From NCBI RefSeq assembly GCF_036250065.1, contig NZ_CP109199.1, forward strand, positions 7,812,083-7,876,082: DNA of 64,000 nucleotides, given 5' to 3'. This document shows, piece by piece, positions 11,866-46,058 of this stretch. A program made the position numbers and the translations under genes. The stretch is from Micromonospora sp. NBC_01699 (GTDB lineage Bacteria > Actinomycetota > Actinomycetes > Mycobacteriales > Micromonosporaceae). Position 1 is the first letter of the stretch; every line of letters begins with the position of its first letter. The notes beneath the pieces were generated by a model, which did no database searches, had not been told where the DNA came from, and saw only the letters and a program-made list of their open reading frames with translations.

Positions 11866-11926
11866 GTTGATCATGAAGTTAGCGACAAAATTCAGGCTCG
11901 AAATCGTCGCTAACTTCATGATCAAC
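11866..11926. repeat. Palindromic intergenic repeat element, copy 1 (18-bp terminal inverted repeats GTTGATCATGAAGTTAGC / GCTAACTTCATGATCAAC around an inner hairpin). A 60-bp C-rich tract is at 11800-11860.
   Basis: Read directly from the sequence. Identical termini occur at the four other loci listed as features. Confidence 0.85.
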
Positions 11927-16370: not shown

Positions 16371-16431
16371 GTTGATCATGAAGTTAACGCACTCCCGAGC
16401 GTCAAAATCGGTTGTTAACTTCATGATCAAC
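16371..16431. repeat. Palindromic intergenic repeat element, copy 2, between the convergent AKR and thiolase genes. It is followed by a G-tract (GGGTGGGGGGTGGGGGGTGGGGGCGGGGGTGGGGG) at 16438-16490.
   Basis: The termini are GTTGATCATGAAGTTAAC / GTTAACTTCATGATCAAC. Confidence 0.85.
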
Positions 16432-23529: not shown

Positions 23530-24303
23530 TCAGCCGCCGGCCGGACGGCGCGCGGGACCGTTGTCGACAAAGCGGAACGTGCTGCGCGGCGGAGCGTCGC
23601 CCAGCTCCTCCAGGATCAGACCGCGGGTCGCGGAGAACTGGAGGAACGCCGAGGAGTTGCTGATCGCGTACGCGTCCTTGCCGCTGGCGGTGATCGTGAA
23701 CCGCTGACCCGGATTGTCCGCGTCACAGGCCGCCGCCTCGACCGTCAGCGACTCCGACGTACCCGGGTTGAGCACCTGCCAGCAGGACGCCTCATCCGAG
23801 GCGGGGTGATTGTCGGGCTTGCCGTATGCCTTGATCAGGTACGTGTCACCGTCGAGCGGCGTCGGCACGAACAACTGACGTCCGCTGTCGTCGTCGACCT
23901 CGACCAGATCGCCGTCGAGCGACACCGCAGACTCGGACGCCTGTACGCGCACGATGGTGACCTCACGCGTACCCGAAAGCACGGGATCGGTCGCACGCCC
24001 GGGGATGGGCGGTGGTGGGGACAGCGACGGCGACACCGGTACGGAAACGGAGGGTCCGGCGGACGCGGGAGGGGCCGCGGGCGGACCCGTGTACGGCCGG
24101 TTGTCCGGCCGGGCCAGGGCGACGCCCGTGGTGAGCACGCCCACCAGCGCGACACCGAGCGTTGCCGTGGCGACGTGCCTCCGCTTACGCCGAGCGTCAC
24201 CGCGCTTGCGGATGTCGGCGGCGACGGTGGTGAGCCGGCCGGTACGGGCAGCGTGCGCGGCGATTGAACGCAGCCCGTCGTCGAGATGGTCGTCACGCAT
24301 CAC
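23530..24303 (-). CDS. Putative anti-sigma factor: a cytoplasmic N-terminus, one TM helix and a Pro-rich linker carrying a roughly 150-aa extracytoplasmic domain
   Basis: It overlaps the ECF sigma stop by 11 nt. The TM helix is ATLGVALVGVLTTGVALA. The C-terminal domain is paralogous to the lipoprotein at 25014..25708. Confidence 0.6.
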   Translation of the reverse strand: MMRDDHLDDGLRSIAAHAARTGRLTTVAADIRKRGDARRKRRHVATATLGVALVGVLTTGVALARPDNRPYTGPPAAPPASAGPSVSVPVSPSLSPPPPIPGRATDPVLSGTREVTIVRVQASESAVSLDGDLVEVDDDSGRQLFVPTPLDGDTYLIKAYGKPDNHPASDEASCWQVLNPGTSESLTVEAAACDADNPGQRFTITASGKDAYAISNSSAFLQFSATRGLILEELGDAPPRSTFRFVDNGPARRPAGG

Positions 24304-24805
24304 GGCCCCTCCCGCCCATGACGTACTGCTCGTTGCTGGTCAGGTGCTCGGCCAGGGCCCGGCGGCCCCGGGCGAGCCAGGTCTTGACCGTGTTGGCGGA
24401 GGTTCCGATCTCCGCCGCGATCTCGGCGACGCTGAGACCGACGAGATGGTGCAGGACGACGACCCTACGTTGATCGGCTGAGATCTGGCGCAGGGCCTGC
24501 ACCAGCGCCACGTGGTCGGGGTTGATCGGGTCGACATGGTCGTCGGTCACGTCCCGGCGATGAGCCCGGAGACGGTTCGCGGCCTTGCGCCACGCCGAGA
24601 CCGCTATCCGGTACGCGACCCGGCGCACCCACCCTTCGGGGCTTTCGCACTCACGCACCCGACTCCACCGATCCCACGCCCGCAGGTACGCCTCTGCCAC
24701 GGCATCCTCGGCCTCGGCGCGGTTGCCGACCATCGCGTACACCTGCCCCAGCACCCGCCGAGAGGATCCGGCGTAGAAGTCATCGAACTCCTCGGCGTTA
24801 CGCAT
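24293..24805 (-). CDS. ECF (sigma-70 family) RNA polymerase sigma factor
   Basis: Region 2 is DAVAEAYLRAWDRWSRV. Region 4 is LSVAEIAAEIGTSANTVKTWLARGRRAL. Confidence 0.85.
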   Translation of the reverse strand: MRNAEEFDDFYAGSSRRVLGQVYAMVGNRAEAEDAVAEAYLRAWDRWSRVRECESPEGWVRRVAYRIAVSAWRKAANRLRAHRRDVTDDHVDPINPDHVALVQALRQISADQRRVVVLHHLVGLSVAEIAAEIGTSANTVKTWLARGRRALAEHLTSNEQYVMGGRGRDA

Positions 24806-25865: not shown

Positions 25866-25925
25866 GTTGATCATGAAGTTAGCGCGCCCCGGGCGGCAAA
25901 AATCCGCGCTAACTTCATGATCAAC
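25866..25925. repeat. Palindromic intergenic repeat element, copy 3, immediately downstream of the giant ATPase gene stop. A C-rich tract is at 25795-25860.
   Basis: The termini are GTTGATCATGAAGTTAGCGCG / CGCGCTAACTTCATGATCAAC. Confidence 0.85.
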
Positions 25926-25939
25926 GAGGCGATGGCGGG

Positions 25940-28900
25940 TTAGGGGTGGGTGGCTCGGGTTATGGCGGATTCGATGGCGGCTATGCGGTCGGCCAGGAGG
26001 CCGAGGGCGCCTACGGCTCGGGTGATGGGGTCGTCGGAGGTGCCGCCCAGGGCGCGTTCGCGCAGGTAGCCGGTTTTTACCTCGGTCCATCGGCGGGACT
26101 GGCCGGGGGTCAGACGGCCCCGCAGGTCGGCCAGCTTGAGGAGGTTCGCCTCGGCTCCCGCTGCCAGGGTCTGCGCCTCACCGAGGTAGTGGTCGTCGAT
26201 GACCCGTTCCAGCTCCTCGTCGTTCATCACCGGCACGATTCGCTCGGTCAGCTTGTTCATGTTCCGGTAGGAACCCTGGAGCAGGAACGGTGGCTCCGTA
26301 CGCGACGCGTCCGCCTGCGCCGCCGAGGCGATGTACGCCCGGTTGTTCGCCAACACCACCTCCTGCACCCGGACCAGTTTGCGCAGCACCGAAAGGATCT
26401 GGTCCAACTCGACCGCCGCGTACGGGTGGGTGAGCTGGTCGGCGCGGACCGTCTCGTCGCCACGGGCCAGCCGGACCAGCAGTTGCAGGTCACCACGGTC
26501 CCGTCCGGCGAGCGGTGCCAGCACCGGGTTCGAGGTGATCGCGTTCTCCAGGTAGCTGAGCGCGAACACCTCCTCGCGGCCGGAGAGCACGTCACCGAGG
26601 TTCCACACGTCCGCCCGGTTCGCCAGCATGTCCGGCACCCGGAACCGCCGCCCCGACTCCGTGTACGGGTTGCCCGCCATGCACACCGCGAACCGCTTTC
26701 CGCGCAGGTCGTAGCTGCGGGTACGGCCGTCCCAGACGCCCTCCATCCGGCGCTGCCCGTCACAGAGCGAGATGAACTTCTGCAACAGCTCGGGCGAGGT
26801 GTGCTGGATGTCGTCCAGGTAGAGCATGACGTTGTTGCCCAGCTCCAACGCGAACGAGATCTTCTCCACCTCCTGCCGGGCGGTGGCGTTCGGTGCCTCG
26901 GCCGGGTCGACCGAGGTGACCGCCGAACCGAGCGCCGGCCCGTTCACCTTGACGAAGACCAGGCCGAGCCGGCTGGCGACGTACTCCATCAGGGTTGTCT
27001 TGCCGTAACCCGGTGGGGAGATGAGCAGCAGCAGGCCCATCTGGTCGACCCGTTTGCCGTCACCGGTCGCGCCGATCTGGCGGGCCAGGTTGTCCCCGAT
27101 CAGCGGCAGGTAGACCTCGTCCAGCAGCCGGTTGCGGACGAACGAACCGAGCACCTTCGGCTGGTGCTCGGCCAGGCGCAGCCGCTTGCGCTCGCTGGCC
27201 ACCAGCTCGTTGCGCCGCTTCTGGTACGCCCGGTACGCCGGCACCCGCACGGTCCGGAACTCACCGGTACGCGACAGCAGCTCGTCCATCCGTACCGACA
27301 GCCGGGCGTCGGTGATCCGGGGATGGGTGGCGAGCAGCCCGGTCACCTCGGCGGTCAGGGTGGCCGCCGACTCGTGCCGGGGCAGACCCGAGCCGCAGAG
27401 TTCGATCGCCACCGCCTCCGGCAGGTCGTACGCGTCCAGCGCCGGGCCGCCGCCGACCGGTTCGGACAGATCCGCCGTACGCAGGAACGACTCCAGCCAC
27501 GCTTCGACCAGTTGGTGCCGGGCGGCCAGGTCGTCGCCGAGTGCCCGCAGGTCCTCCTCGTACTCCTGCACCGACTTGGAGGCGGGGCCGCCGAGGGTGC
27601 GCCGGAACCGGTCGAGCAGCGCGCGGGCACCGGCGCCGGTGACGAAGCCGAACGGCGCCCGGGACAGCTCCTCGAACAGGTACTCGGCGGCGAGCGGGGC
27701 CGCCGAGGCGTGTTCCGGCAACCCGGCCGTACGCAGGAACCGCTCCGCCGCGTCGGCCAGCTCCGTACGGAGTTCCCCGATCGCGTCCGTGGCGCCGAAC
27801 GCGGTCCGGGCCCTGGCCAGCGAACCGGCCCGGGTGGACCAGGCGGTACGGGTCGGCTCGTCCACGCCGAAGGTCCAGAACAGTTGTGCGGCGGCGCGGG
27901 CGCCCGGCCGGAAGCGCAGCAGACCGGCACCGTCGTAGAGGCGCAGCAGCGGCTCCAGGATCGCCGCCGCGTCGTGGTCGTGGATGCCGCGTTCGTAACC
28001 CTCGTCGTACCGGCCCTCGGCGACCCGGCGGACCAGGTCGAGCAGCGCCGGCCGGCTCACCGCCGCCTTGTGCAACGCCTCCAGGGTCAGTCCGCCGACG
28101 CCCGCCCCGGCGTCGGTGAGGATCGAGGTGGCCAGGTGTTCGGCCCGGCTCACCTCGGGCGACTCGGAAACCAGAAGCTGGTCCCAGAAGGCGCTGGTCT
28201 GCTGGAAGCTCTCGTCCCGGATCGGTGACCGGTAGTCGGTGCCGGTGACCGCGACCGCCAGCCGGCCGTCCTGCGGCACCAGCGTGACGTCGACCTCCTG
28301 GGTGTTGACCGAGAAGCTGTGCCGGCCGAGCCGAATCGTCGCACCGCCGTCGAGGTACAGGTCCTGCTGGTCGCGCAGGGCCCGGCCCGCCTCCTGCCGG
28401 GCGGCCTTGATCCGCCCGGCGAGCTCCTCGGCCCGGACCGGGTCGCCCAGCGTACGCAGCTCGTCGGCGACCCCGCGCAGCTTCGCCACCATCGGATCGG
28501 AGGCGAAGTACGTGTTGATCTCGTCGATCGAGCGCAGCCCGGAGAGCCGGCGGTGCACGCTGACCAGGATCCGCTCGGCCGAGCCGACCAGCCGGTCGGA
28601 GCGGCGGGCCCGCTCGTCCAGCAGGGCCTGCTTGCGGGCGGAGAACGCCTCGTAGATGTCGGCCCGGCGGGTGCTCAGCTCGGCGAGGAAGTCGTCGAAC
28701 TCGCCGAACCGGGACTCCAGGTTCTCCACCTGGAGCAGCAGCCGGCCCAGTTGCTCGTCACAACGCTCGGCCGTGTCGGCGACCGCCAGCGCACCGGTCA
28801 CCGCCTGCCCGAGCAGCGCGAACTCGGCCGCGAAGCCGGCCCGCCCCTCGGCGGTGAGCAGCTGGGCGCGACGGCCGTCGAGGGTGGCCCGAGCCCGGTT

Positions 28901-30994
28901 GACCGCGCCGAGCACCTCGCCGATGCTGGCCAGGATCCCGGTCCGTACGGTCGCGTCGCCGATCTCCAGCGAGCCGACCACCTCGGTCACCACCTGTAGG
29001 CCCTCGGCCTGCTCGGCGAGCCGGTCGCGCGGCGGGGCGGCCTCGGCCACCGTGCCGATCTCGGCGGCGCCGGTACGCAGCCGCTCCACCTCGGCCTGGT
29101 AGTCGCCGAACGCGTCGTCGCGGCGCAGGAAGGCGACCACCCGCTGCCCGGTGGAGGTCAGCTCGGCGGCGAGGTCGACACCGAGCGCGTCGATCCGGGC
29201 CAGGTCGACATACCGCAGGTCGCGCAGGGTCACGAGTTGACCCTGCGCCTGGCGGAGGCCGGCGAGCTGGCGTACCCACTCGTCGGCGGTGCGCGGGGCT
29301 TCGCCGCGTACCTGGCGGACCAGGGTCGCGGTGCGGGCGGCGGCCTCGTCCAGGGTGGCGGCGGCGTGCGCGGTGAGCGACTGGACCTTCTCGAACTCGT
29401 CCAGCACCTGTTTGCCGCTGGCGCGTACCTCGCTCAGTGGGGCACGCAGGTCACCGAGGTCGGCCTCACCGAGCCAGTGGTAGTGGTCGAAGATCCGGGC
29501 ACAGGCCGTGATCAGCGCCTCGAACACCCCGAGGGTCGGTGTCATCTCGTTGACCATCCGGGCCACCGACAGACAGTCCGAGATTCCGCGTACGAGGTCC
29601 GCGTTGCCGACCCGCTCCAGCGGACCGGTGCCGACCGGCTGTCCGGCGGCGTAACTGTCGGACAGGTACGGCGTCTGCCACACCTGCATCGGGTGCACCC
29701 GGGTCGGCTCGTCCGAGGTGGCCCGGAAGACCACCAGCGTCCCGTCGTCGAACAGCGAGTAGCCGTGACACGGAACCGGGGTCGCGACCTCCTTGCGGAT
29801 CACGTTGTACGGCAGCAGCAGCGTTCGCCCGGCACCTCGGGCGTGGAAGACGTAGAGCACGTCCTCGCCGTTGGTCGACCGGATGGTCCGCTCGAACTCC
29901 AGCCCCTCGGTGTCGGTGTCGAAGGTCCGGCTGACCCCGGTGGCCAGGTAGTAGCCGCCGGGGAAGATGATGCCGTGGTCCTCGGGCAGCCGCTGGCAGG
30001 CCTGCCCGATGCCGTCGAGCCGGACCACCTCCTTGGTCCTGGTGTTGAAGACCAGGTGCCGCCACCGCGTCTCCTTGTACGGCCGCATCCGCAGCAGGAT
30101 CAGCGGGCCGATCCGGGCGTGCTGGACGTCGGCGTCGGCGAGGCTCTGCAACGGCTCGTCGACCGGCTCGGAGTAGATGCCCTCGCCGGTCTCGGTGTTG
30201 TTCTCCAGCTTGACCGTGAGCGTGCCGCCGACCGTCTCGACAAAGACCTCGTCCTCGATCGAGATGTGCGGGTGCCGGCCGAGGATGTGGTCGTCGCGGG
30301 TGGTCGGAATCCACTCGAAGTCGTGCGACGGCGGGAAAACATGGTCGCGCTCGCCCCGGTTGTCCAGGTACGTGACCCTGCCGTCGACGTCGACCTGCCA
30401 CCGCAACACCCGGATGTCCTCGGTACGCGGCCCGGTCTGGAAGACCGCCAGCAACCGCCCGTCCAGCCGTCGCAACTGCACCAACCGGGTCTCCCGGTAG
30501 TAGCGGTACAGCTCGCCGAAGTCGCGTTCGAACTGCGGGTCGCGCAGCAGCCCGGCGAGCTGCGCCGGATCGACGTCGTCGAACCGGAACGCGTCCTCGT
30601 CGTCGCCGGAGGGGTCGTCGGTGGCGGCCCGGCCACGGGCGAAGTGGTGCAGCGAGAAGACGTCGTCCACGGTCGTCTCGGGCTTGAGCCCGATGAAGAC
30701 GTTGTAGCCGAACAGCATCAGGCCGCCGACCGAGACGATGTCCCGGGGTACGCAGTTGTTCCGGGTCCGGATCCGCTCGGTGCCGATCAGCCGCAGCTCG
30801 GTGCCGCCGAAGACCTCCAACCGGCGGCTGTTCAGCCACTCGGCCCGCCGAGCCAGCTCCCCGGCCCGCTCGGCGAGCCGGGCCCGCAACACCTCGTACG
30901 TGCCGGCGTCGACTCCGCCGCCGGTGGCCGCCCCGGCTCCGGCATCCGGCTCAACCGTGCTGGTCACCGTGCCGGCGGTCGACGGGTCACTCAC
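25940..30994 (-). CDS. Giant (1684 aa) multidomain protein with a C-terminal AAA+ ATPase of the MoxR/McrB/dynein-like (AAA_5) type. It is the last gene of the NfeD-flotillin operon.
   Basis: Walker A is LLLISPPGYGKTTLMEYV. Walker B is VMLYLDDIQ. Sensor is FAVCMAGNPYTESG and the arginine region is PDMLANRADVWNLGD. The N-terminal roughly 1250 aa are uncharacterised (a beta-rich region then long helical segments). The GTG start at 30992-30994 overlaps the flotillin stop at 30987-30989. Confidence 0.7.
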   Translation of the reverse strand: MSDPSTAGTVTSTVEPDAGAGAATGGGVDAGTYEVLRARLAERAGELARRAEWLNSRRLEVFGGTELRLIGTERIRTRNNCVPRDIVSVGGLMLFGYNVFIGLKPETTVDDVFSLHHFARGRAATDDPSGDDEDAFRFDDVDPAQLAGLLRDPQFERDFGELYRYYRETRLVQLRRLDGRLLAVFQTGPRTEDIRVLRWQVDVDGRVTYLDNRGERDHVFPPSHDFEWIPTTRDDHILGRHPHISIEDEVFVETVGGTLTVKLENNTETGEGIYSEPVDEPLQSLADADVQHARIGPLILLRMRPYKETRWRHLVFNTRTKEVVRLDGIGQACQRLPEDHGIIFPGGYYLATGVSRTFDTDTEGLEFERTIRSTNGEDVLYVFHARGAGRTLLLPYNVIRKEVATPVPCHGYSLFDDGTLVVFRATSDEPTRVHPMQVWQTPYLSDSYAAGQPVGTGPLERVGNADLVRGISDCLSVARMVNEMTPTLGVFEALITACARIFDHYHWLGEADLGDLRAPLSEVRASGKQVLDEFEKVQSLTAHAAATLDEAAARTATLVRQVRGEAPRTADEWVRQLAGLRQAQGQLVTLRDLRYVDLARIDALGVDLAAELTSTGQRVVAFLRRDDAFGDYQAEVERLRTGAAEIGTVAEAAPPRDRLAEQAEGLQVVTEVVGSLEIGDATVRTGILASIGEVLGAVNRARATLDGRRAQLLTAEGRAGFAAEFALLGQAVTGALAVADTAERCDEQLGRLLLQVENLESRFGEFDDFLAELSTRRADIYEAFSARKQALLDERARRSDRLVGSAERILVSVHRRLSGLRSIDEINTYFASDPMVAKLRGVADELRTLGDPVRAEELAGRIKAARQEAGRALRDQQDLYLDGGATIRLGRHSFSVNTQEVDVTLVPQDGRLAVAVTGTDYRSPIRDESFQQTSAFWDQLLVSESPEVSRAEHLATSILTDAGAGVGGLTLEALHKAAVSRPALLDLVRRVAEGRYDEGYERGIHDHDAAAILEPLLRLYDGAGLLRFRPGARAAAQLFWTFGVDEPTRTAWSTRAGSLARARTAFGATDAIGELRTELADAAERFLRTAGLPEHASAAPLAAEYLFEELSRAPFGFVTGAGARALLDRFRRTLGGPASKSVQEYEEDLRALGDDLAARHQLVEAWLESFLRTADLSEPVGGGPALDAYDLPEAVAIELCGSGLPRHESAATLTAEVTGLLATHPRITDARLSVRMDELLSRTGEFRTVRVPAYRAYQKRRNELVASERKRLRLAEHQPKVLGSFVRNRLLDEVYLPLIGDNLARQIGATGDGKRVDQMGLLLLISPPGYGKTTLMEYVASRLGLVFVKVNGPALGSAVTSVDPAEAPNATARQEVEKISFALELGNNVMLYLDDIQHTSPELLQKFISLCDGQRRMEGVWDGRTRSYDLRGKRFAVCMAGNPYTESGRRFRVPDMLANRADVWNLGDVLSGREEVFALSYLENAITSNPVLAPLAGRDRGDLQLLVRLARGDETVRADQLTHPYAAVELDQILSVLRKLVRVQEVVLANNRAYIASAAQADASRTEPPFLLQGSYRNMNKLTERIVPVMNDEELERVIDDHYLGEAQTLAAGAEANLLKLADLRGRLTPGQSRRWTEVKTGYLRERALGGTSDDPITRAVGALGLLADRIAAIESAITRATHP

Positions 30995-33014
30995 CCGTAC
31001 CCCGTTGCCTCGGGCTGCCGCTCAGTGCGGCGATCGGCTGATCGGCCAGGCCGAGCTGCTGGGCCGCCCGCAGCAGGTCCTGCAACTTGTCCGAGTTGGA
31101 CCCGCCGGCCTTGATCTGCTGCAACAACCACGCCGACACGGTCAGGTTCTGTACGTCACCGGTGTTCAGCGAGCCGAGTATCCGGGTCAGGTCGGCGGGG
31201 AAGCTCGCCTCGCCGTCCAGCCACGGCTTGGCCAGGCTCTGCGCGACCTCGGAGTGCTGCACGAAGCCGTCGACGCTCTTGCCGAGGGTGATCGAGTTGA
31301 CCAGCCGGTCGAAGAACATGGTGTCCCCGCCGACGATGTCGATGTTCGCCTTCTCCAGCCCGGCGGCGAGCACCATCGCCTGCGACTCGGCCACCCGGTG
31401 CTGCGCGTTGATCTCGGCCAGCCGGAGGTCCTTCTCCGCCTCCAACCGCAGCCGGAACTCCTCGTGCCCCCGGCTGGCGTCGGTCAGCGCGGCCATCGCG
31501 GCGGCCTTCTCGGTCAGACCCTCCGCCTCGCCCTTGAGCTTGTCACGCAGGGCGTCGGCCAGGACCAGCGCCTTCTCGCGTTCGACCATCGCCTCGGCCC
31601 GGCCCTCCTTCTCGATGGCCTCGGCGCCGCGCTCGCGTACCTGGACCTGGGCCAGACCGGTCGCGGCGGCCTCGGCCTGCGCGCCCTCGGCCAGCCGGAT
31701 CTTGGCGCGGGTCTCCAGTTCGGCGGCCTGCTGCCGGGCCTCGGCCAGGACCAGGTTCTCCCGCGCCTTGTGCTTGGCCGCCTGCTCCGACGCCTCGGCC
31801 GCCTTGATGTCCTTGACCAGGGCCTCCTGCGCCTCCGCCTCGGCCTGGATGATCACCGCCTGCCGGGTCCGCTCGGCCTCCTCGACCACCCGCAGGCGCT
31901 TGATGTTCTCCTCCTGCTCGGCGACGGTCTTGTCGACCGCTATCCGCTCCCGGATCACCTCGGCGATCGCCCGCTTCTCGACCTCGACCTCTTTGTCCTT
32001 GGAGATGGTGGACAGCTCGGTCTCCCGCTGCCGGCCGATCACCTCCAGCATCCGGTCCTTCTCGATCCGCTCCGACTCGATAGCGATGACCCGTTCCCGG
32101 TTCTTCTCCGCGACCGCGATCTCCCGAGCCTTGTTCTCCTTCTGGATGCCCAACTGCTCGTCCGTACGGATGTGCGCGGCTTCCGAGCGGAGCCGCTCCT
32201 CCGCCCGTACCTTGGAGATCTCCGCGTCCTCGCGGGCCCGCAGCGTCTCGATCTCGCGATTCTGCTTGAGCTCGGCGTCGGCCTGGCGTCGTTCCAGCTC
32301 CAGGATGGCCTCCCGGGCGTCGACGTTCTGCCGGGTGATCTCCTTCTGCTCGTTGCGCTGGAACTCGTTGGTACGGATGTGCTCGATCGCGGTCAGCTCG
32401 GTGATCTTCCGGATGCCCTGGGCGTCGAGGATGTTCGCCGCGTCCAGTTTGGACAGTGGGGTCTGCTCAAGGAAGTCGATCGCCGCGTCCTCCAGGCTGT
32501 AGCCGTTGAGGTCGGTGCCGATCACCCGGATGATCTGATCCCGGAACTCGTTCCGCTTGGTGTAGAGGTCGACGAAGTCGAGCTGCTTGCCGACCGTCTT
32601 CAGCGCCTCGGAGAACTTCGCGTTGAACAGTTCCTGCAACGTCTCCCGGTCACTGGCCCGCGCGGTGCCGATCGCCTGCGCCACCTTGATCACGTCTTCG
32701 GTGGTCTTGTTCACCCGGACGAAGAAGGTGATCCTGATGTCTGCCCGGATGTTGTCCCGGCAGATCAGGCCCTCCTGGCCGGTCCGCTCGATGTCGATCG
32801 TCTTCACCGAGATGTCCATGATCTCGGACTTGTGCAGCACCGGCAGCACGACCGCACCGGTGAACGTCACGTCCACCCGGCGGACCTTGGAGATGATCAG
32901 CGCCTTGCCCTGTTCGACCTTCCGGAACAGGCGGCTGACCAGGAAAACCACGCCGATCGCGACGAGCAGGACGACGGCCAGGAGCACGCCGAACCCGGTG
33001 GTGATCACATCCAT
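30987..33014 (-). CDS. Flotillin-like SPFH/band-7 protein (YqiK/FloT-like) with a long Glu/Ala-rich coiled coil
   Basis: N-terminal TM helix (FGVLLAVVLLVAIGVVFLV). The SPFH domain is QGKALIISKVRRVDVTF...VLHKSEIMDISVKTIDIERTG...ITFFVRVN. An EA-rich heptad region follows. RBS GAAGGA precedes ATG 33014. Confidence 0.85.
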   Translation of the reverse strand: MDVITTGFGVLLAVVLLVAIGVVFLVSRLFRKVEQGKALIISKVRRVDVTFTGAVVLPVLHKSEIMDISVKTIDIERTGQEGLICRDNIRADIRITFFVRVNKTTEDVIKVAQAIGTARASDRETLQELFNAKFSEALKTVGKQLDFVDLYTKRNEFRDQIIRVIGTDLNGYSLEDAAIDFLEQTPLSKLDAANILDAQGIRKITELTAIEHIRTNEFQRNEQKEITRQNVDAREAILELERRQADAELKQNREIETLRAREDAEISKVRAEERLRSEAAHIRTDEQLGIQKENKAREIAVAEKNRERVIAIESERIEKDRMLEVIGRQRETELSTISKDKEVEVEKRAIAEVIRERIAVDKTVAEQEENIKRLRVVEEAERTRQAVIIQAEAEAQEALVKDIKAAEASEQAAKHKARENLVLAEARQQAAELETRAKIRLAEGAQAEAAATGLAQVQVRERGAEAIEKEGRAEAMVEREKALVLADALRDKLKGEAEGLTEKAAAMAALTDASRGHEEFRLRLEAEKDLRLAEINAQHRVAESQAMVLAAGLEKANIDIVGGDTMFFDRLVNSITLGKSVDGFVQHSEVAQSLAKPWLDGEASFPADLTRILGSLNTGDVQNLTVSAWLLQQIKAGGSNSDKLQDLLRAAQQLGLADQPIAALSGSPRQRGTGE

Positions 33015-33028
33015 CAGTGGTCCTTCTG

Positions 33029-33661
33029 TCAGTGGGGGTGGTAGTCGGGGTCACCGGTGGCCTCCACCGGCAGCACCCAGAAGAACTCGCGGTCGGCGTC
33101 GTAGTCGTAGATGAGCGCGCGACTGCCGGAGCCGAGGTTGTCGCCGCTGGCCTGCCGGACCTGGATCACCGCCGACGAGCCGTCGGGGGAGGTCACCTCG
33201 GCCTGGCCGAAGTCGACACTGACCAGCCCGGTACGGACCACGCAGACCCGACCGACGAAGGCGTTACGGGAAACGGTCTGATCGGTCTGGAAGAACTGTC
33301 GCAGTGGCCGTACCAGCAGTCGGGTGACCAGCCAGCCGCCGGCCAGGGCGAACAGCAGCAGCACCGTGGAGAGCACCGCCGCCAGCGCACCGGACCAACC
33401 GGGCTGTTCCAGCAGCACCGTGCCGGCCAGGCTGACGAACCAGGCCACCGCGATCAGCAGGGAGAGGACAACCGTGGCCGGCGGTCCGCCGAGCCCGAGC
33501 CCGGCCAGGAATCCGGCCGCCCCGGCGGGCTCGGCAGCCGCGTCGTCGTCCAGTCCGACCACCCCGAACAGCACCAGCGCCCAGTAGCCGACCACCACCA
33601 CGAGCAGGAAACTGAATAGTGCGGTCGGGAAACCGAGCGCCACGTCCAGGAACTCACCCAT
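33029..33661 (-). CDS. NfeD/YqiJ-like membrane protein (multi-TM N-terminus plus C-terminal OB-fold), partner of flotillin
   Basis: 210 aa with four hydrophobic segments and a C-terminal beta-rich segment (RVCVVRTGLVSVDFGQAEVTSPDGSSAVIQVRQA). It lies 14 nt upstream of the flotillin gene. This is the classical yqiJ-yqiK arrangement. Confidence 0.65.
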   Translation of the reverse strand: MGEFLDVALGFPTALFSFLLVVVVGYWALVLFGVVGLDDDAAAEPAGAAGFLAGLGLGGPPATVVLSLLIAVAWFVSLAGTVLLEQPGWSGALAAVLSTVLLLFALAGGWLVTRLLVRPLRQFFQTDQTVSRNAFVGRVCVVRTGLVSVDFGQAEVTSPDGSSAVIQVRQASGDNLGSGSRALIYDYDADREFFWVLPVEATGDPDYHPH

Positions 33662-34659: not shown

Positions 34660-35914
34660 CTAGCGACGAGGCGGGGTGACCCGACCCTCGATCGCCGCCA
34701 GCGCGATGTCCCGTCGATAGTGCGAGTCGGCCAACCCGATCCCCTCGACCAGGGCGTACGCCGCGTCCCGCGCGACCTCCAGGTCCGGGCCGATCGCCGT
34801 ACCGCAGAGGACCCGGCCCCCGGCGGACACCAGGGCACCGTCTTCCTCGCGGCGCGCGGTGCCGGCGTGGATGATGCCCGACCGCTCGGCGCCCGTGATC
34901 ACGTCGCCGGTGCGGGCCGACTCGGGATATCCGGCCGAGGCCACCACCACCGCGACCCCGGCACCGCCGCGCCAGGTCAGCGGCGGGTGCGCGGCGAGCG
35001 TCCCGGTCGCGGCCGCGTGCAGCAGGCCGGCCAGCGGCGTCTCCAACAGCGCGAGTACGACCTGCGTCTCCGGATCCCCGAAGCGCGCGTTGAACTCGAT
35101 CACCTTGGGCCCGCTGGCGGTGATGGCCAGGCCGACGTAGAGCAGCCCGGAGAACGGGGTGCCGCGTCGGCGCATCTCCGCCAGGGTCGGCTCGACCACC
35201 CGGGCCATCACGTCCTCGACCAGGTCCGGTGCCGCCCACGGCAGTGGCGCGTACGCCCCCATGCCGCCGGTGTTCGGACCGGTGTCGCCGTCGCCGACCC
35301 GCTTGAAGTCCTGGGCCGGCAGCAGCGGCAGCGCCGCCTCCCCATCGGTCACCACGAACAGCGAGACCTCGGGTCCGGCCAGATATTCCTCGACCACCAC
35401 GCGGTTGCACTGGGCGGCGTGTTCGAGCGCGTGGGTCCGGTCCTCGGTCACCACCACGCCCTTGCCGGCGGCCAGCCCGTCGTCCTTCACCACGTACGGC
35501 GGGCCGAACTCGTCCAGCGCGCGAGCCACCTCGTCCGCATCAGTGCAGGTGTACGCGCGAGCGGTGGGCACCCCGGCAGCCGTCATGATCTCCTTGGCGA
35601 ACGCCTTGGAGCCCTCCAACTGGGCAGCCGCCCCGGACGGCCCGAAGACCGCGATCCCCTTGGCCCGAACCGCGTCGGCGACCCCGGCGACGAGTGGCGC
35701 CTCCGGCCCGATCACCACCAGGTCGGCCCCGGTCTCCACGGCCAGCCCCGCGACCGCCCCCGGATCAACCGCGTCAATCGCCCGGCATTCCGCCACAGCC
35801 GCGATCCCCGGATTCCCCGGCGCCGCAACCACCGCCTCAACCGCCGAGTCACCCGTCAACCCGAGCACGAGCGCATGCTCCCGCCCACCACCACCCACCA
35901 CAAGTACGCGCACG
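34660..35914 (-). CDS. purD: Phosphoribosylamine--glycine ligase (PurD)
   Basis: VRVLVVGGGGREHALV... ATP-grasp ...KVIEFNARFGDPETQ. GTG start at 35912-35914. The upstream part of track ORF 34660..36609 is spurious. Confidence 0.9.
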
Positions 35915-35949
35915 ACCCCAGATCCTACCCACCCACCCACCCCCCGCTC

Positions 35950-36010
35950 GTTGATCATGAAGTTAGCAACGCCTCCAGGCGCATTTTCCGTTGCCAACTT
36001 CATGATCAAC
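35950..36010. repeat. Palindromic intergenic repeat element, copy 4, between the divergent purD and AbiEi/DUF559 genes. It is flanked by a C-tract (35885-35945) and a roughly 90-bp G-tract (36011-36100).
   Basis: The termini are GTTGATCATGAAGTTAGCAACG / CGTTGCCAACTTCATGATCAAC. Confidence 0.85.
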
Positions 36011-36095
36011 GGGGCTGGGGTGGGGGTTATCCACAGGGGGGGTGGGGGTTGTGCACAGGGGGTGGTGGGAGGGGGTGGAAGGGGGGTGGGTCGGG

Positions 36096-37024
36096 GGATG
36101 GATGGGATGACGTTGGTTCGGCGGGTGGCGGCGGGGCAGGACGGGGTGGTGACTCGGGAGCAGGCGTTGGCCGCGGGGTTGACGGTGCGGGAGATCGATC
36201 GACTGTGTCGCAGCCGCGAGTGGCGGAGGCTGGCTCGGGCGGCGTACCTGGTGGATCTGACGCCGAGTCCGGTGGCGGCGCGGCGAGCCCGGATCCGGGC
36301 GGCAGTCGCCTCGTTCGGGGAGCTGGCGACGGCGGTGCTCGGGACCTCGGCCGAGTTGCACGGGTTGGCGGGACTGCGGCCGGATGCGCGGATCCACGTC
36401 TCCGTACCCGGCCCGGCCGCCCGACCGCTGCGATCGAAAGATCCGGCCGTGGTGGTGCACCAGCTCGTGATCCCGGCCGGGCAGATCGGCACGGTCGCCG
36501 GGATCCGAACCACCACCGCGACCCGTACGGCCGCCGACCTGGCACTCCGGGTGGACCGCTTCGCGGCCGTGTCGCTGCTGGACTCGGCTCTGCACCAGGG
36601 CTCGATCACCGAGCCGGACCTGCTGGTCGTACGCGCGCTGCTCGCCCGGCGCCGAGGTGCGGTGGCCGCCCGGCGTCACCTGGCCGAGGCGGACGGGCGG
36701 GCCGAGTCCCCACTGGAGACCCGGGTACGCCTGCGTTGCGTGGACGGTGGCGTACCACCGGACGCACTACAGCACCCGGTACGCGACGACGACGGCCACC
36801 TGCTGGCCGTGGGCGATCTCGCCTGGCTCCGCGAACGGATCATCGGCGAAGCCGACGGCGCGCTCGTACACGCCACCCCGGAAGCCCTCTACCGCGACCG
36901 CCGCCGCCAGAACCTGATCGCCAACGCCGGCTGGCGCGTACTCCGCTTCACCTGGGCCGACACCCTGAACCCCACCTACATCCCCACCACCATCCGCGCC
37001 GCCCAGACCCACCCGGCCCGTTGA
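36096..37024 (+). CDS. Protein with an AbiEi-type N-terminal domain and a DUF559 (Vsr-endonuclease-like) C-terminal domain
   Basis: MDGMTLVRRVAAGQDGVVTREQALAAGLTVREIDRLCRS... C-terminal ...NLIANAGWRVLRFTWADT. It lies exactly between repeat copies 4 and 5. Its TGA stop is inside copy 5. Confidence 0.65.
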
Positions 37025-37080
37025 CCATGAAGTTAGCGACGGTTCGGAGCACGTTTCCGGTCGCTAACTTCATGATCAAC
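37020..37080. repeat. Palindromic intergenic repeat element, copy 5 (GTTGACCATGAAGTTAGCGACGG...CCGGTCGCTAACTTCATGATCAAC). It is followed by three 21-bp tandem repeats GGCGGTCAGAGGAGGGRGTGG at 37087-37150.
   Basis: Direct reading. It overlaps the DUF559 gene stop codon. The downstream tandem repeats run into the purA 3' end. Confidence 0.85.
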
Positions 37081-42628: not shown

Positions 42629-42792
42629 CGGCCCATTGAACCTGCCCGACCTGCGGGGTGGCGAGGCGGGATGCCTTTCGGCCTGACTGAAAGGCTGAGG
42701 GTTTGGTCACGCGTGCGGCCGGTGCGGGCGATGGTCGACTCGACTACAAATAGAGGTCCGGAGCCTCCCCAGGACCCGGTAAGGAGAGCCCG

Positions 42793-42987
42793 GTGATCTC
42801 GGTCACCGGGCTCTCGCCGTCGAGGCGCCGTCGAGGCGACGTCGAGGCGACATCCGGGAGACGTCCGGGAGACGTCCGGCTGGACCAGTTCGGCCGGACC
42901 GGGCGGGACTCGGCGAGACCCCGACGAGACCCGGCGCGGCCCCGCGCGTGGTCGCCGGTTGCCGGTTGCCGGCGCGGAGGAGGATGA
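42793..42987 (+). other. Candidate 64-codon Arg-rich leader uORF translationally coupled (ATGA) to the LOG-family gene. Its RBS and start are embedded in a 13-bp perfect inverted repeat.
   Basis: AAGGAGAG (42781-42788) then GTG 42793. The TGA stop at 42985-42987 overlaps ATG 42984. Internal 11-bp tandem repeats are present. Confidence 0.3.
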
Positions 42988-44270
42988 CGGACGTGCCCAC
43001 ACCACCCTCGACCCACCTACTCGAACCGGACGACGACACCACGGAGTCCGAGATCGAGTCCCGCGCCGAACTCGACCGCCACCTGGCCACCGGCAGCCTT
43101 GCCGGGCTGACGGTGCAGGGCCTGCGGTTGGACCTCGACCCGGAGCCCGACCTCACCAGCGTCGACCTGACCGACACCCTCTTCATCGGCTGCCGGTTCG
43201 CCGACCGGCAGGTCGAGGCGGACCTGATCCGGCGGGGCGCCCACCTGCTGCCGCCGTTCGCCGACCTGCCGTACTCGACCCAGCCGCCCCGGCTCTACAC
43301 CCCGGACGACCTGGTCGCCGGCTTCGGCACCGGGGGCTTCGCCAGCATGTTCGACGCGCTGGTCTACGAGCACTTCCGGACGCACGGTGGGGCGATGCCA
43401 CCGGTTCGGGAGGCGCTGGCCCAGCGGATGCACGACCACGGGGTCGACAACGCGCTCGCCGACGCCACCCGGAGCTGGCTGGCCGTGCACGGCCCCGGTT
43501 CGGTGATCGGGGTGATGGGCGGGCACGCCGTACCGCGCGGAACCTCCGCGTACCGGCTGGCGGCCACGCTGGGCTGGGAGCTGGCTCGGGCGGACCGGCT
43601 GGTGGTGACCGGTGGCGGGCCGGGTGTGATGGAGGCGGCGAACCTCGGCGCGTACCTCTCCGGCCGTACCCCGGAGGAGCTGGCGGCGGCCATCGACCTG
43701 CTCGCCGCCGCACCCGACTTCACCGACCACGACCGCTACACGGCGGCGGCGCTGCGGGTCCGGGCCGAGTTCGGGCCGGGCCCGGACGGGCCGGGGTTCA
43801 CCACCGGGCTCGGTGCGGCACCGGCCGGTGCCGCACCCGCCCAGCGTGGCGGCGACCGGTCCGTCGTGGCCGACACCGTCGGCTGGGCGCGGCGCGGTGG
43901 CCTGTCCATCCCCACCTGGCTGTACGGACACGAGCCGGCGAACCTGTTCGCGGGCAGGATCGCCAAGTACTTCTCGAACGCCATCCGCGAGGACACCCTG
44001 CTCCGGCTGGCCCGGGGCGGGATCGTCTTCGCCGCCGGCCGGGCCGGGACGGTGCAGGAGGTGTTCCAGGCGGCGACGAAGACGTTCTACGGCACCGACG
44101 GGGCGAGCGGCGCGTACGTCTTCCTCGACCGTGCCTTCTGGACCGAGACGCTGCCGATCGAGTCGCTGCTCCGGCCGCTGTTCTCGCTCACCCCGTTCGG
44201 CGACCTGACCGGCTCGATCCACGTGACCGACGACGTGCACGAGGCGGTACGACTGCTCGTCCGAGACTGA
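42984..44270 (+). CDS. LOG-family (TIGR00730, Rossmann-fold, 'lysine decarboxylase-like') protein with an N-terminal extension
   Basis: VVTGGGPGVMEAANLGA...GGIVFAAGRAGTVQEVFQ, the LOG motifs. The start ATG is at 42984-42986. Confidence 0.7.
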   Translation: MTDVPTPPSTHLLEPDDDTTESEIESRAELDRHLATGSLAGLTVQGLRLDLDPEPDLTSVDLTDTLFIGCRFADRQVEADLIRRGAHLLPPFADLPYSTQPPRLYTPDDLVAGFGTGGFASMFDALVYEHFRTHGGAMPPVREALAQRMHDHGVDNALADATRSWLAVHGPGSVIGVMGGHAVPRGTSAYRLAATLGWELARADRLVVTGGGPGVMEAANLGAYLSGRTPEELAAAIDLLAAAPDFTDHDRYTAAALRVRAEFGPGPDGPGFTTGLGAAPAGAAPAQRGGDRSVVADTVGWARRGGLSIPTWLYGHEPANLFAGRIAKYFSNAIREDTLLRLARGGIVFAAGRAGTVQEVFQAATKTFYGTDGASGAYVFLDRAFWTETLPIESLLRPLFSLTPFGDLTGSIHVTDDVHEAVRLLVRD

Positions 44271-44342: not shown

Positions 44343-45368
<1,026 letters not shown>

Positions 45369-45520
45369 GTCGAACGCTCCTTACTAACCACTTCGGCCGC
45401 AACGGCCGCTGTCTCACGTGTACGCGCCGGACCGCGCTGTCCTTCGCGGGCAGTATCCCGCAGGACGCCCTTGCCGACACAACCGACCCGGATCGACCCG
45501 ATTCACCGACCCGGAGCGGC

Positions 45521-45904
45521 TCACCGACGGTCGAACCGGTCCGGTACGAAGACGCTGATCAACCAGCTCACCACCGCCACCACGATGGCTCCCCAGAAGG
45601 CCGCCCAGAAGCCGTTCACGTGGAACGGCAGATCGAACTCGCCGGCAATCCAGTCGGTCAGCAGGAACAGCAGCGCGTTCACGACCAGGGCGAACAGCCC
45701 CAGGGTGAGGACGTAGAACACGCAGCCGACCACCCGGATGACCGGCTTCAGCACCATGTTGACCACACCGAAGATCACCGCCACGACCAGCAGCGTCAAC
45801 GCGTTCTCCCCGGCCGACGAACCGGACACGTCGATGCCGGGCACCAGTGCGGTGGTGACCCACAACGCGACCGCCGTGATCACCAGCCGGATCAGGTAGC
45901 CCAC
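45521..45904 (-). CDS. Phage-holin-family-4 / YvlD (DUF360)-like small membrane protein
   Basis: 127 aa with four TM helices (LVITAVALWVTTALVPGIDV...VIFGVVNMVLKPVI...). Confidence 0.55.
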   Translation of the reverse strand: MGYLIRLVITAVALWVTTALVPGIDVSGSSAGENALTLLVVAVIFGVVNMVLKPVIRVVGCVFYVLTLGLFALVVNALLFLLTDWIAGEFDLPFHVNGFWAAFWGAIVVAVVSWLISVFVPDRFDRR

Positions 45905-46058
45905 CGGCCCATCGTGTCACCGCCACCGCCCGGCGGGGTGCCATTCGGCCCGACTGGCGCCACCGACCGGCCGGGCTCGGGTTTGCCGGCACGTACCCGA
46001 CGGACCGGCAGGTCAACCCGTACGGTGAAAACAGCACCGCGGACCGGAGGAGGCGACG

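Follow-up and report, generated by a model that had tools for sequence, protein, structure and literature searches.

A giant AAA+ ATPase encoded in a flotillin operon of Micromonospora sp. NBC_01699 and its likely connection to membrane scaffolds

The operon and its giant ATPase gene

We analyzed a stretch of 64,000 nucleotides (nt) from Micromonospora sp. NBC_01699 (assembly GCF_036250065.1, contig NZ_CP109199.1, positions 7,812,083 to 7,876,082 of the forward strand), referred to below as the window, in which positions are counted from the first letter. Three adjacent genes on its minus strand encode, in the order of their reading, a YqiJ-family inner-membrane protein, a flotillin of the SPFH/Band-7, YqiK-like type, and a giant AAA+ ATPase of 1684 amino acids (aa), which is the subject of this study (Table 1). 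The open reading frame (ORF) of the giant protein lies exactly where a first-pass annotation, made by a model from the letters alone, had placed it. Its translation is identical (100% over the full length) to the protein filed at NCBI as 'DNA repair ATPase [Micromonospora sp. NBC_01699]', and its G+C content at the three codon positions (GC1 0.73, GC2 0.47 and GC3 0.92, in a window of about 70% G+C) is what real genes of this genome usually show, indicating that the ORF is a genuine gene. The giant protein has no hydrophobic membrane-spanning segment and is soluble, and the Pfam scan found no peptidase domain in it.

The first 8 nt of the giant gene, including its GTG start, lie within the stop region of the flotillin gene, 14 nt separate the YqiJ-like gene from the flotillin gene, and the order yqiJ-like, flotillin, giant ATPase constitutes one operon. 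This context, which is the decisive clue to the giant protein, had gone unnoticed in the first-pass annotation. The flotillin matches Pfam Band_7 (E 7.5e-7) and shares 29% identity with Escherichia coli YqiK in an alignment of 458 aa (E 1e-38). A single hydrophobic segment at its N terminus would serve as an anchor; a long helical stretch rich in Ala and Glu follows, and a C-terminal region of some 125 aa is conserved. The YqiJ-like gene (GC3 0.88) encodes three hydrophobic segments; its product on its own had no Pfam match, and gave no convincing match either as a single sequence or as a three-sequence profile. A nine-sequence profile of its counterparts from five or more phyla aligned with E. 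coli YqiJ (hhalign probability 93.7%, E 1.9e-7), and the Planctomycetota counterpart matches Pfam YqiJ_N (E 3e-9). Flanking the operon are housekeeping or unrelated genes: on the upstream side purD and purA, and on the downstream side genes for an ECF sigma factor, for a TetR regulator and for fatty-acid metabolism. The scan of ORFs on both sides revealed neither a PspA nor a CesT gene.

Domain architecture and the AAA+ module

Pfam family DUF3686, which is described as 'ATPase involved in DNA repair', matches the giant protein over aa 46-506 and along its whole profile (positions 1-448 of 448; E 1.4e-223), and DUF7902 covers aa 627-710 (E 1.2e-30). The structure of the protein was predicted with AlphaFold as two overlapping halves, aa 1-880 and aa 871-1684, from input alignments that combined actinomycete and distant homologues; the two models reached a pLDDT of 86.8 and of 88.8 (pTM 0.78), respectively. 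The models predict a beta-rich domain close to the N terminus, then an elongated helical rod, a middle region that ends in a long linker helix, and finally the AAA+ core with its lid and, at the C terminus, a helical extension. The beta-rich domain is predicted to be a divergent beta-propeller, whose approximately 26 modelled strands would make up seven blades, and the rod shows structural likeness to the repeats of spectrin, plectin and talin. The middle region matches no Pfam family and aligns colinearly among family members with as little as 27% identity.

These models revise the description of the N-terminal part given in the first-pass annotation, which had proposed an uncharacterised region of roughly 1250 aa that is beta-rich over residues 230-500 and then helical with possible coiled coils. 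A long extension is indeed present, and its length is nearer to 1300 aa because the AAA+ core begins at about aa 1315. The beta-rich span was misplaced, since the modelled beta domain occupies aa 68-440. The following part is helical, as had been stated, but the model shows tandem three-helix bundles instead of a simple coiled coil of two strands. As to its being uncharacterised, the region is already catalogued under two Pfam families, but the domain scan assigned the protein to no known characterised family with the same architecture.

The four ATPase motifs quoted in the first-pass annotation (PPGYGKTT, a Walker B of the form hhhhDDIQ, AGNPYTESG and PDMLANRADV) are all present in the giant protein. 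In alignments of 19-47 diverse members, the family-invariant forms of these motifs are SPPGYGKTT, (L/I)Y(L/V)DDIQH, MAGNPYTE.G and PDML.NR. They are invariant or nearly so even in relatives that share 27-35% identity over the first 1200 aa, which argues for a functional ATPase site and against a chance pattern. From their positions in the modelled AAA+ fold, we infer that Asn1442 is sensor 1, while Arg1459 is a candidate arginine finger and Arg1577, which lies in an invariant QGSYRNM motif, a candidate for sensor 2. In all aligned intact members the Walker B motif ends in DD, and not in the canonical hhhhDE with its catalytic glutamate. At the position of pore loop 1 (consensus NGPALGH.VTS.DPAEAPN) no conserved aromatic residue was found.

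The assignment of the module to the AAA_5 clade, as opposed to the classical AAA proteins, is supported by the structural comparison, because the modelled module has its closest solved folds in two MoxR ATPases, CbbQ and NorQ, followed by dynein and midasin. The structural alignment with CbbQ covers 239 of 267 CbbQ residues. The sequence leaves this choice undecided, as the ATPase region matches Pfam AAA and AAA_5 only weakly and almost equally (26.8 bits and 26.0 bits, respectively, with an AAA_5 cut-off of 22). A pre-sensor-1 beta-hairpin is present in the model between helix 3 and strand 4, with strands at aa 1416-1421 and 1424-1429. The helix-2 insert position, between a short helix and helix 2, holds a conserved and confidently modelled loop of 14 residues (aa 1356-1369), in which no hairpin is predicted. 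A RuvB-like module had been suspected at first, since DDIQH..SPE resembles the RuvB sequence DEIHRLSP and RuvB models ranked top in NCBIfam; the nearest solved folds are those of MoxR ATPases.

Sequence searches identified little beyond the P-loop. Scans against NCBIfam and PADLOC returned matches only at the level of the P-loop, and searches of the PDB, run both with the sequence alone and with a profile of 19 members, matched only about 40-70 residues around the P-loop of Rix7, NVL, p97 or RuvB (E ~1e-3). The protein thus has no solved relative in sequence beyond the surroundings of the P-loop.

Table 1. Features of the operon and of the giant AAA+ protein (positions count from the first letter of the window)
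Feature	Position (nt)	Strand	Residues (aa)	Remarks
YqiJ-family inner-membrane protein gene	33029..33661	minus	210 in total	first operon gene; 3 transmembrane (TM) segments; C-terminal beta-rich soluble domain
Flotillin gene (SPFH/Band-7, YqiK-like)	30987..33014	minus	675 in total	second operon gene
Giant AAA+ ATPase gene	25940..30994	minus	1684 in total	third operon gene; GTG start, 1684 codons
Disordered N-terminal tail			1-30	AlphaFold model
Helix ahead of the beta domain			32-62	AlphaFold model
Beta-rich domain	29675..30793	minus	68-440	AlphaFold model; ~26 strands; core of Pfam DUF3686
Elongated all-helical rod	28358..29659	minus	~446-879	model; tandem spectrin-like three-helix bundles; contains DUF7902
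Middle region	27053..28357	minus	880-1314	C-terminal model; no Pfam family match
Small beta domain			886-924	model
Helical domain			~950-1205	model
Small beta unit			1206-1235	model
Long linker helix running into the ATPase			1236-1272	model
AAA+ alpha/beta core	26585..27052	minus	~1315-1470	model and motifs
Walker A, PPGYGKTT	26993-27016	minus	1327-1334	
Walker B, LYLDDIQ (LYLDD)	26804-26824	minus	1391-1397	
Pre-sensor-1 hairpin		minus	1416-1429	model
AGNPYTESG	26651-26677	minus	1440-1448	contains putative sensor-1 Asn1442
PDMLANRADV (PDMLANRAD)	26606-26635	minus	1454-1463	contains candidate arginine finger R1459
AAA+ lid and C-terminal helical extension	25943..26584	minus	1471-1684	model and invariant columns
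QGSYRNM	26258-26278	minus	1573-1579	invariant; Arg1577 is the candidate sensor-2 arginine

Gene neighbourhoods across phyla and around the operon

Relatives of the giant protein are encoded in at least 584 stretches of a one-genome-per-species collection, and an exhaustive HMMER search with aa 1-1200 returned 1386 clusters at 50% identity (E < 1e-3). Many of the best HMMER matches measure 1600-1930 aa and align colinearly with the giant protein down to 27% identity, and shorter ones were also found. We scanned with tblastn the gene neighbourhoods of the 80 best of the at least 584 loci, which comprise 79 loci from many genera of Actinomycetota and one from Acidobacteriota. A flotillin gene lies directly upstream of the giant gene in 78 of the 80, which are all the loci with upstream sequence, the other two being cut at a contig edge. 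In most of the loci a YqiJ-like gene was also detected. The C-terminal half of the giant protein is 59-91% identical across many actinomycete genera, with a fixed gene order. The architecture, whose conservation the first-pass annotation had suggested checking, is widespread, and the flotillin context is kept across many actinomycete genera. In Nocardiopsis and Saccharothrix the triad of YqiJ-like, flotillin and giant genes is kept while the flanking genes are otherwise different.

Among non-actinomycetes, the triad was also found in Bacteroidota, Planctomycetota, Deinococcota and Pseudomonadota, where PspA and CesT/Tir genes often accompany it. In Flavobacterium litorale (locus L085) the order is CesT_Tir, PspA, YqiJ-like, flotillin, an inserted ABC/SMC-like ATPase and the giant gene, and in a metagenome-assembled genome (L091) it is CesT_Tir, PspA, YqiJ-like, flotillin, giant, DUF4178, DUF350 and spermine synthase. 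A Planctomycetota contig carries two successive PspA genes followed by YqiJ, flotillin and giant genes. On one metagenome contig (L093) a 268-aa gene, which corresponds to YqiJ by position only, is followed by flotillin, giant, PspA and a classical AAA gene, and on another (L086) the triad is followed by TelA. On the Pseudomonas plasmid pQBR103 the genes for DUF2491, DUF350, DUF1190 and a glutathionylspermidine-synthase-like protein precede the triad, a Deinococcus plasmid carries the bare triad, and a further plasmid-borne copy was found on a large Streptomyces plasmid. Further homologues were found in Proteus, Vibrio, Photobacterium, Halomonas and Hymenobacter.

The flotillins linked to giant genes across phyla are 47-65% identical to the window flotillin (30% in the most divergent, from L086), compared with 28% for YqiK, and share the C-terminal region of about 125 aa, which was not detected in YqiK. 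The giant-linked flotillins form a dedicated subfamily of their own.

In the library searched, no paper mentions DUF3686, PF12458 or DUF7902. The operon itself was described in silico in a comparative-genomics study (Ravi et al. 2024, mSystems, PMC11237479), in which abbreviated operons without PspA were reported to be more widespread and a role resembling that of a chaperone, in building membrane-linked complexes, was proposed. We equate the large protein of that study with the giant AAA+ protein because the loci retrieved here match its operon gene for gene, a match made by operon content and not by accessions. The three gene products are alike, as is the domain description of the giant protein, and the Flavobacterium and metagenome-assembled-genome loci show the full CesT/Tir-PspA version of the operon. 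The published account differs from ours in being one paragraph long and in containing neither structure nor motif analysis nor an AAA+ clade. Since it lacks PspA and CesT genes, the window operon corresponds to the abbreviated form. That the giant protein belongs to this family and to this operon is close to certain, and it is one more ortholog in a family that is catalogued, briefly described and experimentally untouched.

Several features of the related loci were noted in addition. The ABC/SMC-like ATPase between the flotillin and giant genes of Flavobacterium (L085 7228-8988; 586 aa, Walker A NGFGKSS, faint SMC_N match) was found in this locus only and may be a mobile or defence-type insertion. 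In L093 (13454-15941), PspA and a separate classical AAA protein of 579 aa follow the giant gene, so that two different AAA+ ATPases stand in one PspA/flotillin cluster. Two relatives of 1040 aa, P0306 and P0307, have DUF3686 and DUF7902 and lack the AAA+ module; P0306 (L087 9001-12123) lies among Por-secretion-tail genes, with neither flotillin nor YqiJ, and may be a truncated or re-purposed derivative. Membrane-stress and polyamine genes stand beside several non-actinomycete triads (L086 13989-15227; L088 1-3620; L091 13230-17162), including those for TelA, DUF350 (YjfL), DUF2491, DUF1190, DUF4178, a glutathionylspermidine-synthase-like protein and spermine synthase. The pQBR103 locus also has a rhomboid and a phospholipase D gene near the triad.

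In the window, a perfect hairpin with 20-nt arms (25867-25924) starts 16 nt past the stop codon of the giant gene and is, by its sequence and position, a plausible terminator of the operon. The same palindrome, with TTGATCATGAAGTTAGCG arms and a loop of about 19 nt, is dispersed in the window, with copies at 11867-11925, 25867-25924 and 37021-37079, after or between genes, and half copies at 16372-16391 and 35951-35970. Eight matches to its arm were found in the window, compared with 0 expected by chance, and the palindrome resembles a REP-like or terminator element belonging to this genome. The half copy at 35951-35970 falls inside an apparent N-terminal extension of purD (34660-36609, minus strand), a 649-aa ORF with GARS domains only from residue 234, and the true purD start is probably about 230 codons further downstream. 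The ECF sigma factor gene (24293-24805, minus strand; Sigma70_r2 and r4_2) is found some 1.1 kb downstream from the giant gene, and the 257-aa ORF that overlaps it (23530-24303, minus strand) could encode an anti-sigma factor. Near fba (44343-45380) are the genes for a Phage_holin_4_2 family membrane protein (45521-45916, minus strand) and for a SLOG cluster-4 domain protein (42783-44270, plus strand), both of which appear unrelated to the giant-ATPase operon.

Proposed membrane-scaffold remodelling and competing explanations

Because its gene shares one operon with a flotillin, the giant protein is most likely a remodeller of membrane scaffolds and not a DNA repair enzyme. We propose that it is a cytoplasmic AAA+ mechano-enzyme that remodels flotillin and PspA membrane assemblies, an explanation that, taken as a whole, we judge to have somewhat better than an even chance of being correct; the remodelling mechanism itself has roughly even odds. 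The AAA+ modules would assemble into a ring, as in MoxR ATPases, from which arms of about 1300 aa, each made of the spectrin-like rod and the propeller, would reach a membrane-bound flotillin assembly or PspA polymers. The subfamily-specific C-terminal region of the flotillin is a candidate docking site for these arms. Hydrolysis of ATP would move the arms and thereby bring about the assembly, disassembly or clearing of the scaffold, or the extraction of clients from it, when the membrane is maintained or the envelope is under stress. A pulling action by way of a lever or linker appears more likely than threading, given that a conserved aromatic pore loop is lacking and that midasin and dynein, the closest solved relatives with long appendages, pull through linkers and do not thread their clients.

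SPFH assemblies partner AAA+ machines elsewhere, as in the HflK/C-FtsH complex and in the pairing of prohibitin with the m-AAA protease, which makes the pairing of the flotillin with the giant protein plausible. As in those complexes, an SPFH scaffold is paired with an AAA+ machine, here at the genetic level. FtsH and the m-AAA protease are, however, membrane-anchored proteases of the classical clade (FtsH with peptidase M41), whereas the giant protein has neither a TM segment nor a protease domain and falls into another AAA+ clade. A comparable analogy is offered by Vps4 and ESCRT-III, since PspA, a member of the ESCRT-III superfamily, is encoded in the same operon in several phyla, and the two systems would share the idea of an ATPase that recycles a membrane-bound polymer. 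Vps4 differs in being a small AAA+ protein of the classical clade that has an MIT domain and threads its substrate, and it shows no relation in sequence or domains to the N-terminal arm of the giant protein. Midasin (Rea1/Mdn1) and dynein, the models for a pulling action, are eukaryotic proteins with six concatenated AAA modules per chain, in contrast to the single module of the giant protein, and their binding domains (MIDAS and the microtubule-binding domain, respectively) and the order of their parts are also different.

Several points weigh against remodelling of this kind. No experimental study of any family member was found in the literature. The DD Walker B suggests that hydrolysis could be slow or that the module could act as a switch, and the apparent lack of an aromatic pore loop is read from an alignment and not from a ring structure. 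PspA is absent from the operon in the window and in the sampled Actinomycetota loci with listed genes. Finally, the formation of a ring is assumed by analogy.

The structural neighbours of the module point to a different possibility, that the protein is a MoxR-type maturation chaperone in which its own N-terminal arm replaces the VWA adaptor and which serves cofactor insertion or maturation of a membrane complex concentrated by flotillin. The nearest folds, CbbQ and NorQ, are MoxR maturation or activation factors, and flotillin scaffolds are thought to gather client complexes (PMC11237479). Members of this group (CbbQ, NorQ and RavA, all AAA_5) are proteins of about 270-500 aa that work with a VWA/MIDAS partner (CbbO, NorD and ViaA, respectively), and the first-pass annotation had likewise noted that AAA_5 proteins normally have a separate VWA partner. 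No VWA domain or MIDAS motif was found in the giant protein, in the neighbouring ORFs of the window or in nine related loci. The operon contains no conserved gene for a client enzyme, the constant neighbours being only the flotillin and the YqiJ-like gene, and the giant protein further departs from MoxR proteins in its 1300-aa arm, its DD Walker B and the 14-residue loop, with no clear hairpin, that takes the place of the helix-2 insert. We regard a maturation chaperone as unlikely. A mainly structural role, in which rods and propellers link flotillin into a sub-membrane lattice and the AAA+ module is a nucleotide-controlled assembly switch instead of a motor, draws on the resemblance of the rod to spectrin, plectin and talin repeats, on the slow hydrolysis that the DD Walker B could imply, and on the order of propeller and rod, which recalls clathrin and IFT-A. 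This last resemblance (Foldseek E 3e-5 for clathrin and IFT-A) comes with very low TM-scores of 0.08-0.19 and may be purely architectural, as the rod is modelled as three-helix bundles and not as an alpha-solenoid, and coat proteins such as the clathrin heavy chain have no ATPase. Moreover, Walker A and B, the sensor-1 Asn, the candidate arginine finger and the candidate sensor 2 are invariant over phyla, which argues for real catalysis, and nothing indicates self-assembly into lattices, so that a skeleton of this type seems rather improbable to us.

The distribution of the family bears on a third proposal, an anti-phage or abortive-infection effector or sensor that acts at the membrane. Copies on large plasmids (pQBR103 and those of Deinococcus and Streptomyces) and the presence near some loci of an HTH/S24 repressor, the ABC/SMC-like ATPase insert or a phospholipase D gene would fit such a role. 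The high identity of the C-terminal half and the fixed synteny across actinomycete genera, however, argue for a vertically inherited core function and against a defence island, and the window operon sits among the housekeeping genes purA, purD and fba. PADLOC-DB contained no meaningful defence match, the best being IetA (E 0.004, over the P-loop only) and mad8 (E 0.018), and we consider a defence function quite improbable. The names given to the family in Pfam and at NCBI would make the protein a DNA repair ATPase, and RuvB is among the weak P-loop matches. Support for this reading ends with the name: neither an ABC-type split head with a long antiparallel coiled coil nor a RuvB-like AAA+ module with a winged helix, in combination with linkage to repair genes, was found, and a role in DNA repair is very improbable. 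The 'DNA repair ATPase' label, by now carried through the databases, is without foundation and can lead the interpretation of genomes astray.

By itself, the window adds no new biology. The significance of the locus lies in the family, in which, across at least six phyla, a conserved ATPase of 1600-1900 aa is linked genetically with a dedicated subfamily of flotillins and, in several of these phyla, stands beside PspA. We know of no dedicated ATPase for bacterial flotillins, and the family bears on how bacterial flotillin assemblies and PspA/IM30 polymers are built, turned over and coupled to energy. The tie to flotillin and the proximity to PspA make the giant ATPase an obvious and tractable candidate for the energy-dependent factor of these assemblies, and the family is open to experiment, as genetics are available in Streptomyces and Micromonospora. 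More tentatively, and as a doubtful possibility rather than an expectation, the family could represent a new AAA+ class, in which a ring of MoxR-like motors carrying six spectrin-like arms with propeller tips mechanically remodels SPFH cages and ESCRT-III-like PspA polymers at the inner membrane. If this were true, the giant protein would be a prokaryotic counterpart to disassembly machines of the Vps4 or midasin type, and would supply the ATP-dependent factor still missing from the dynamics of bacterial membrane microdomains.

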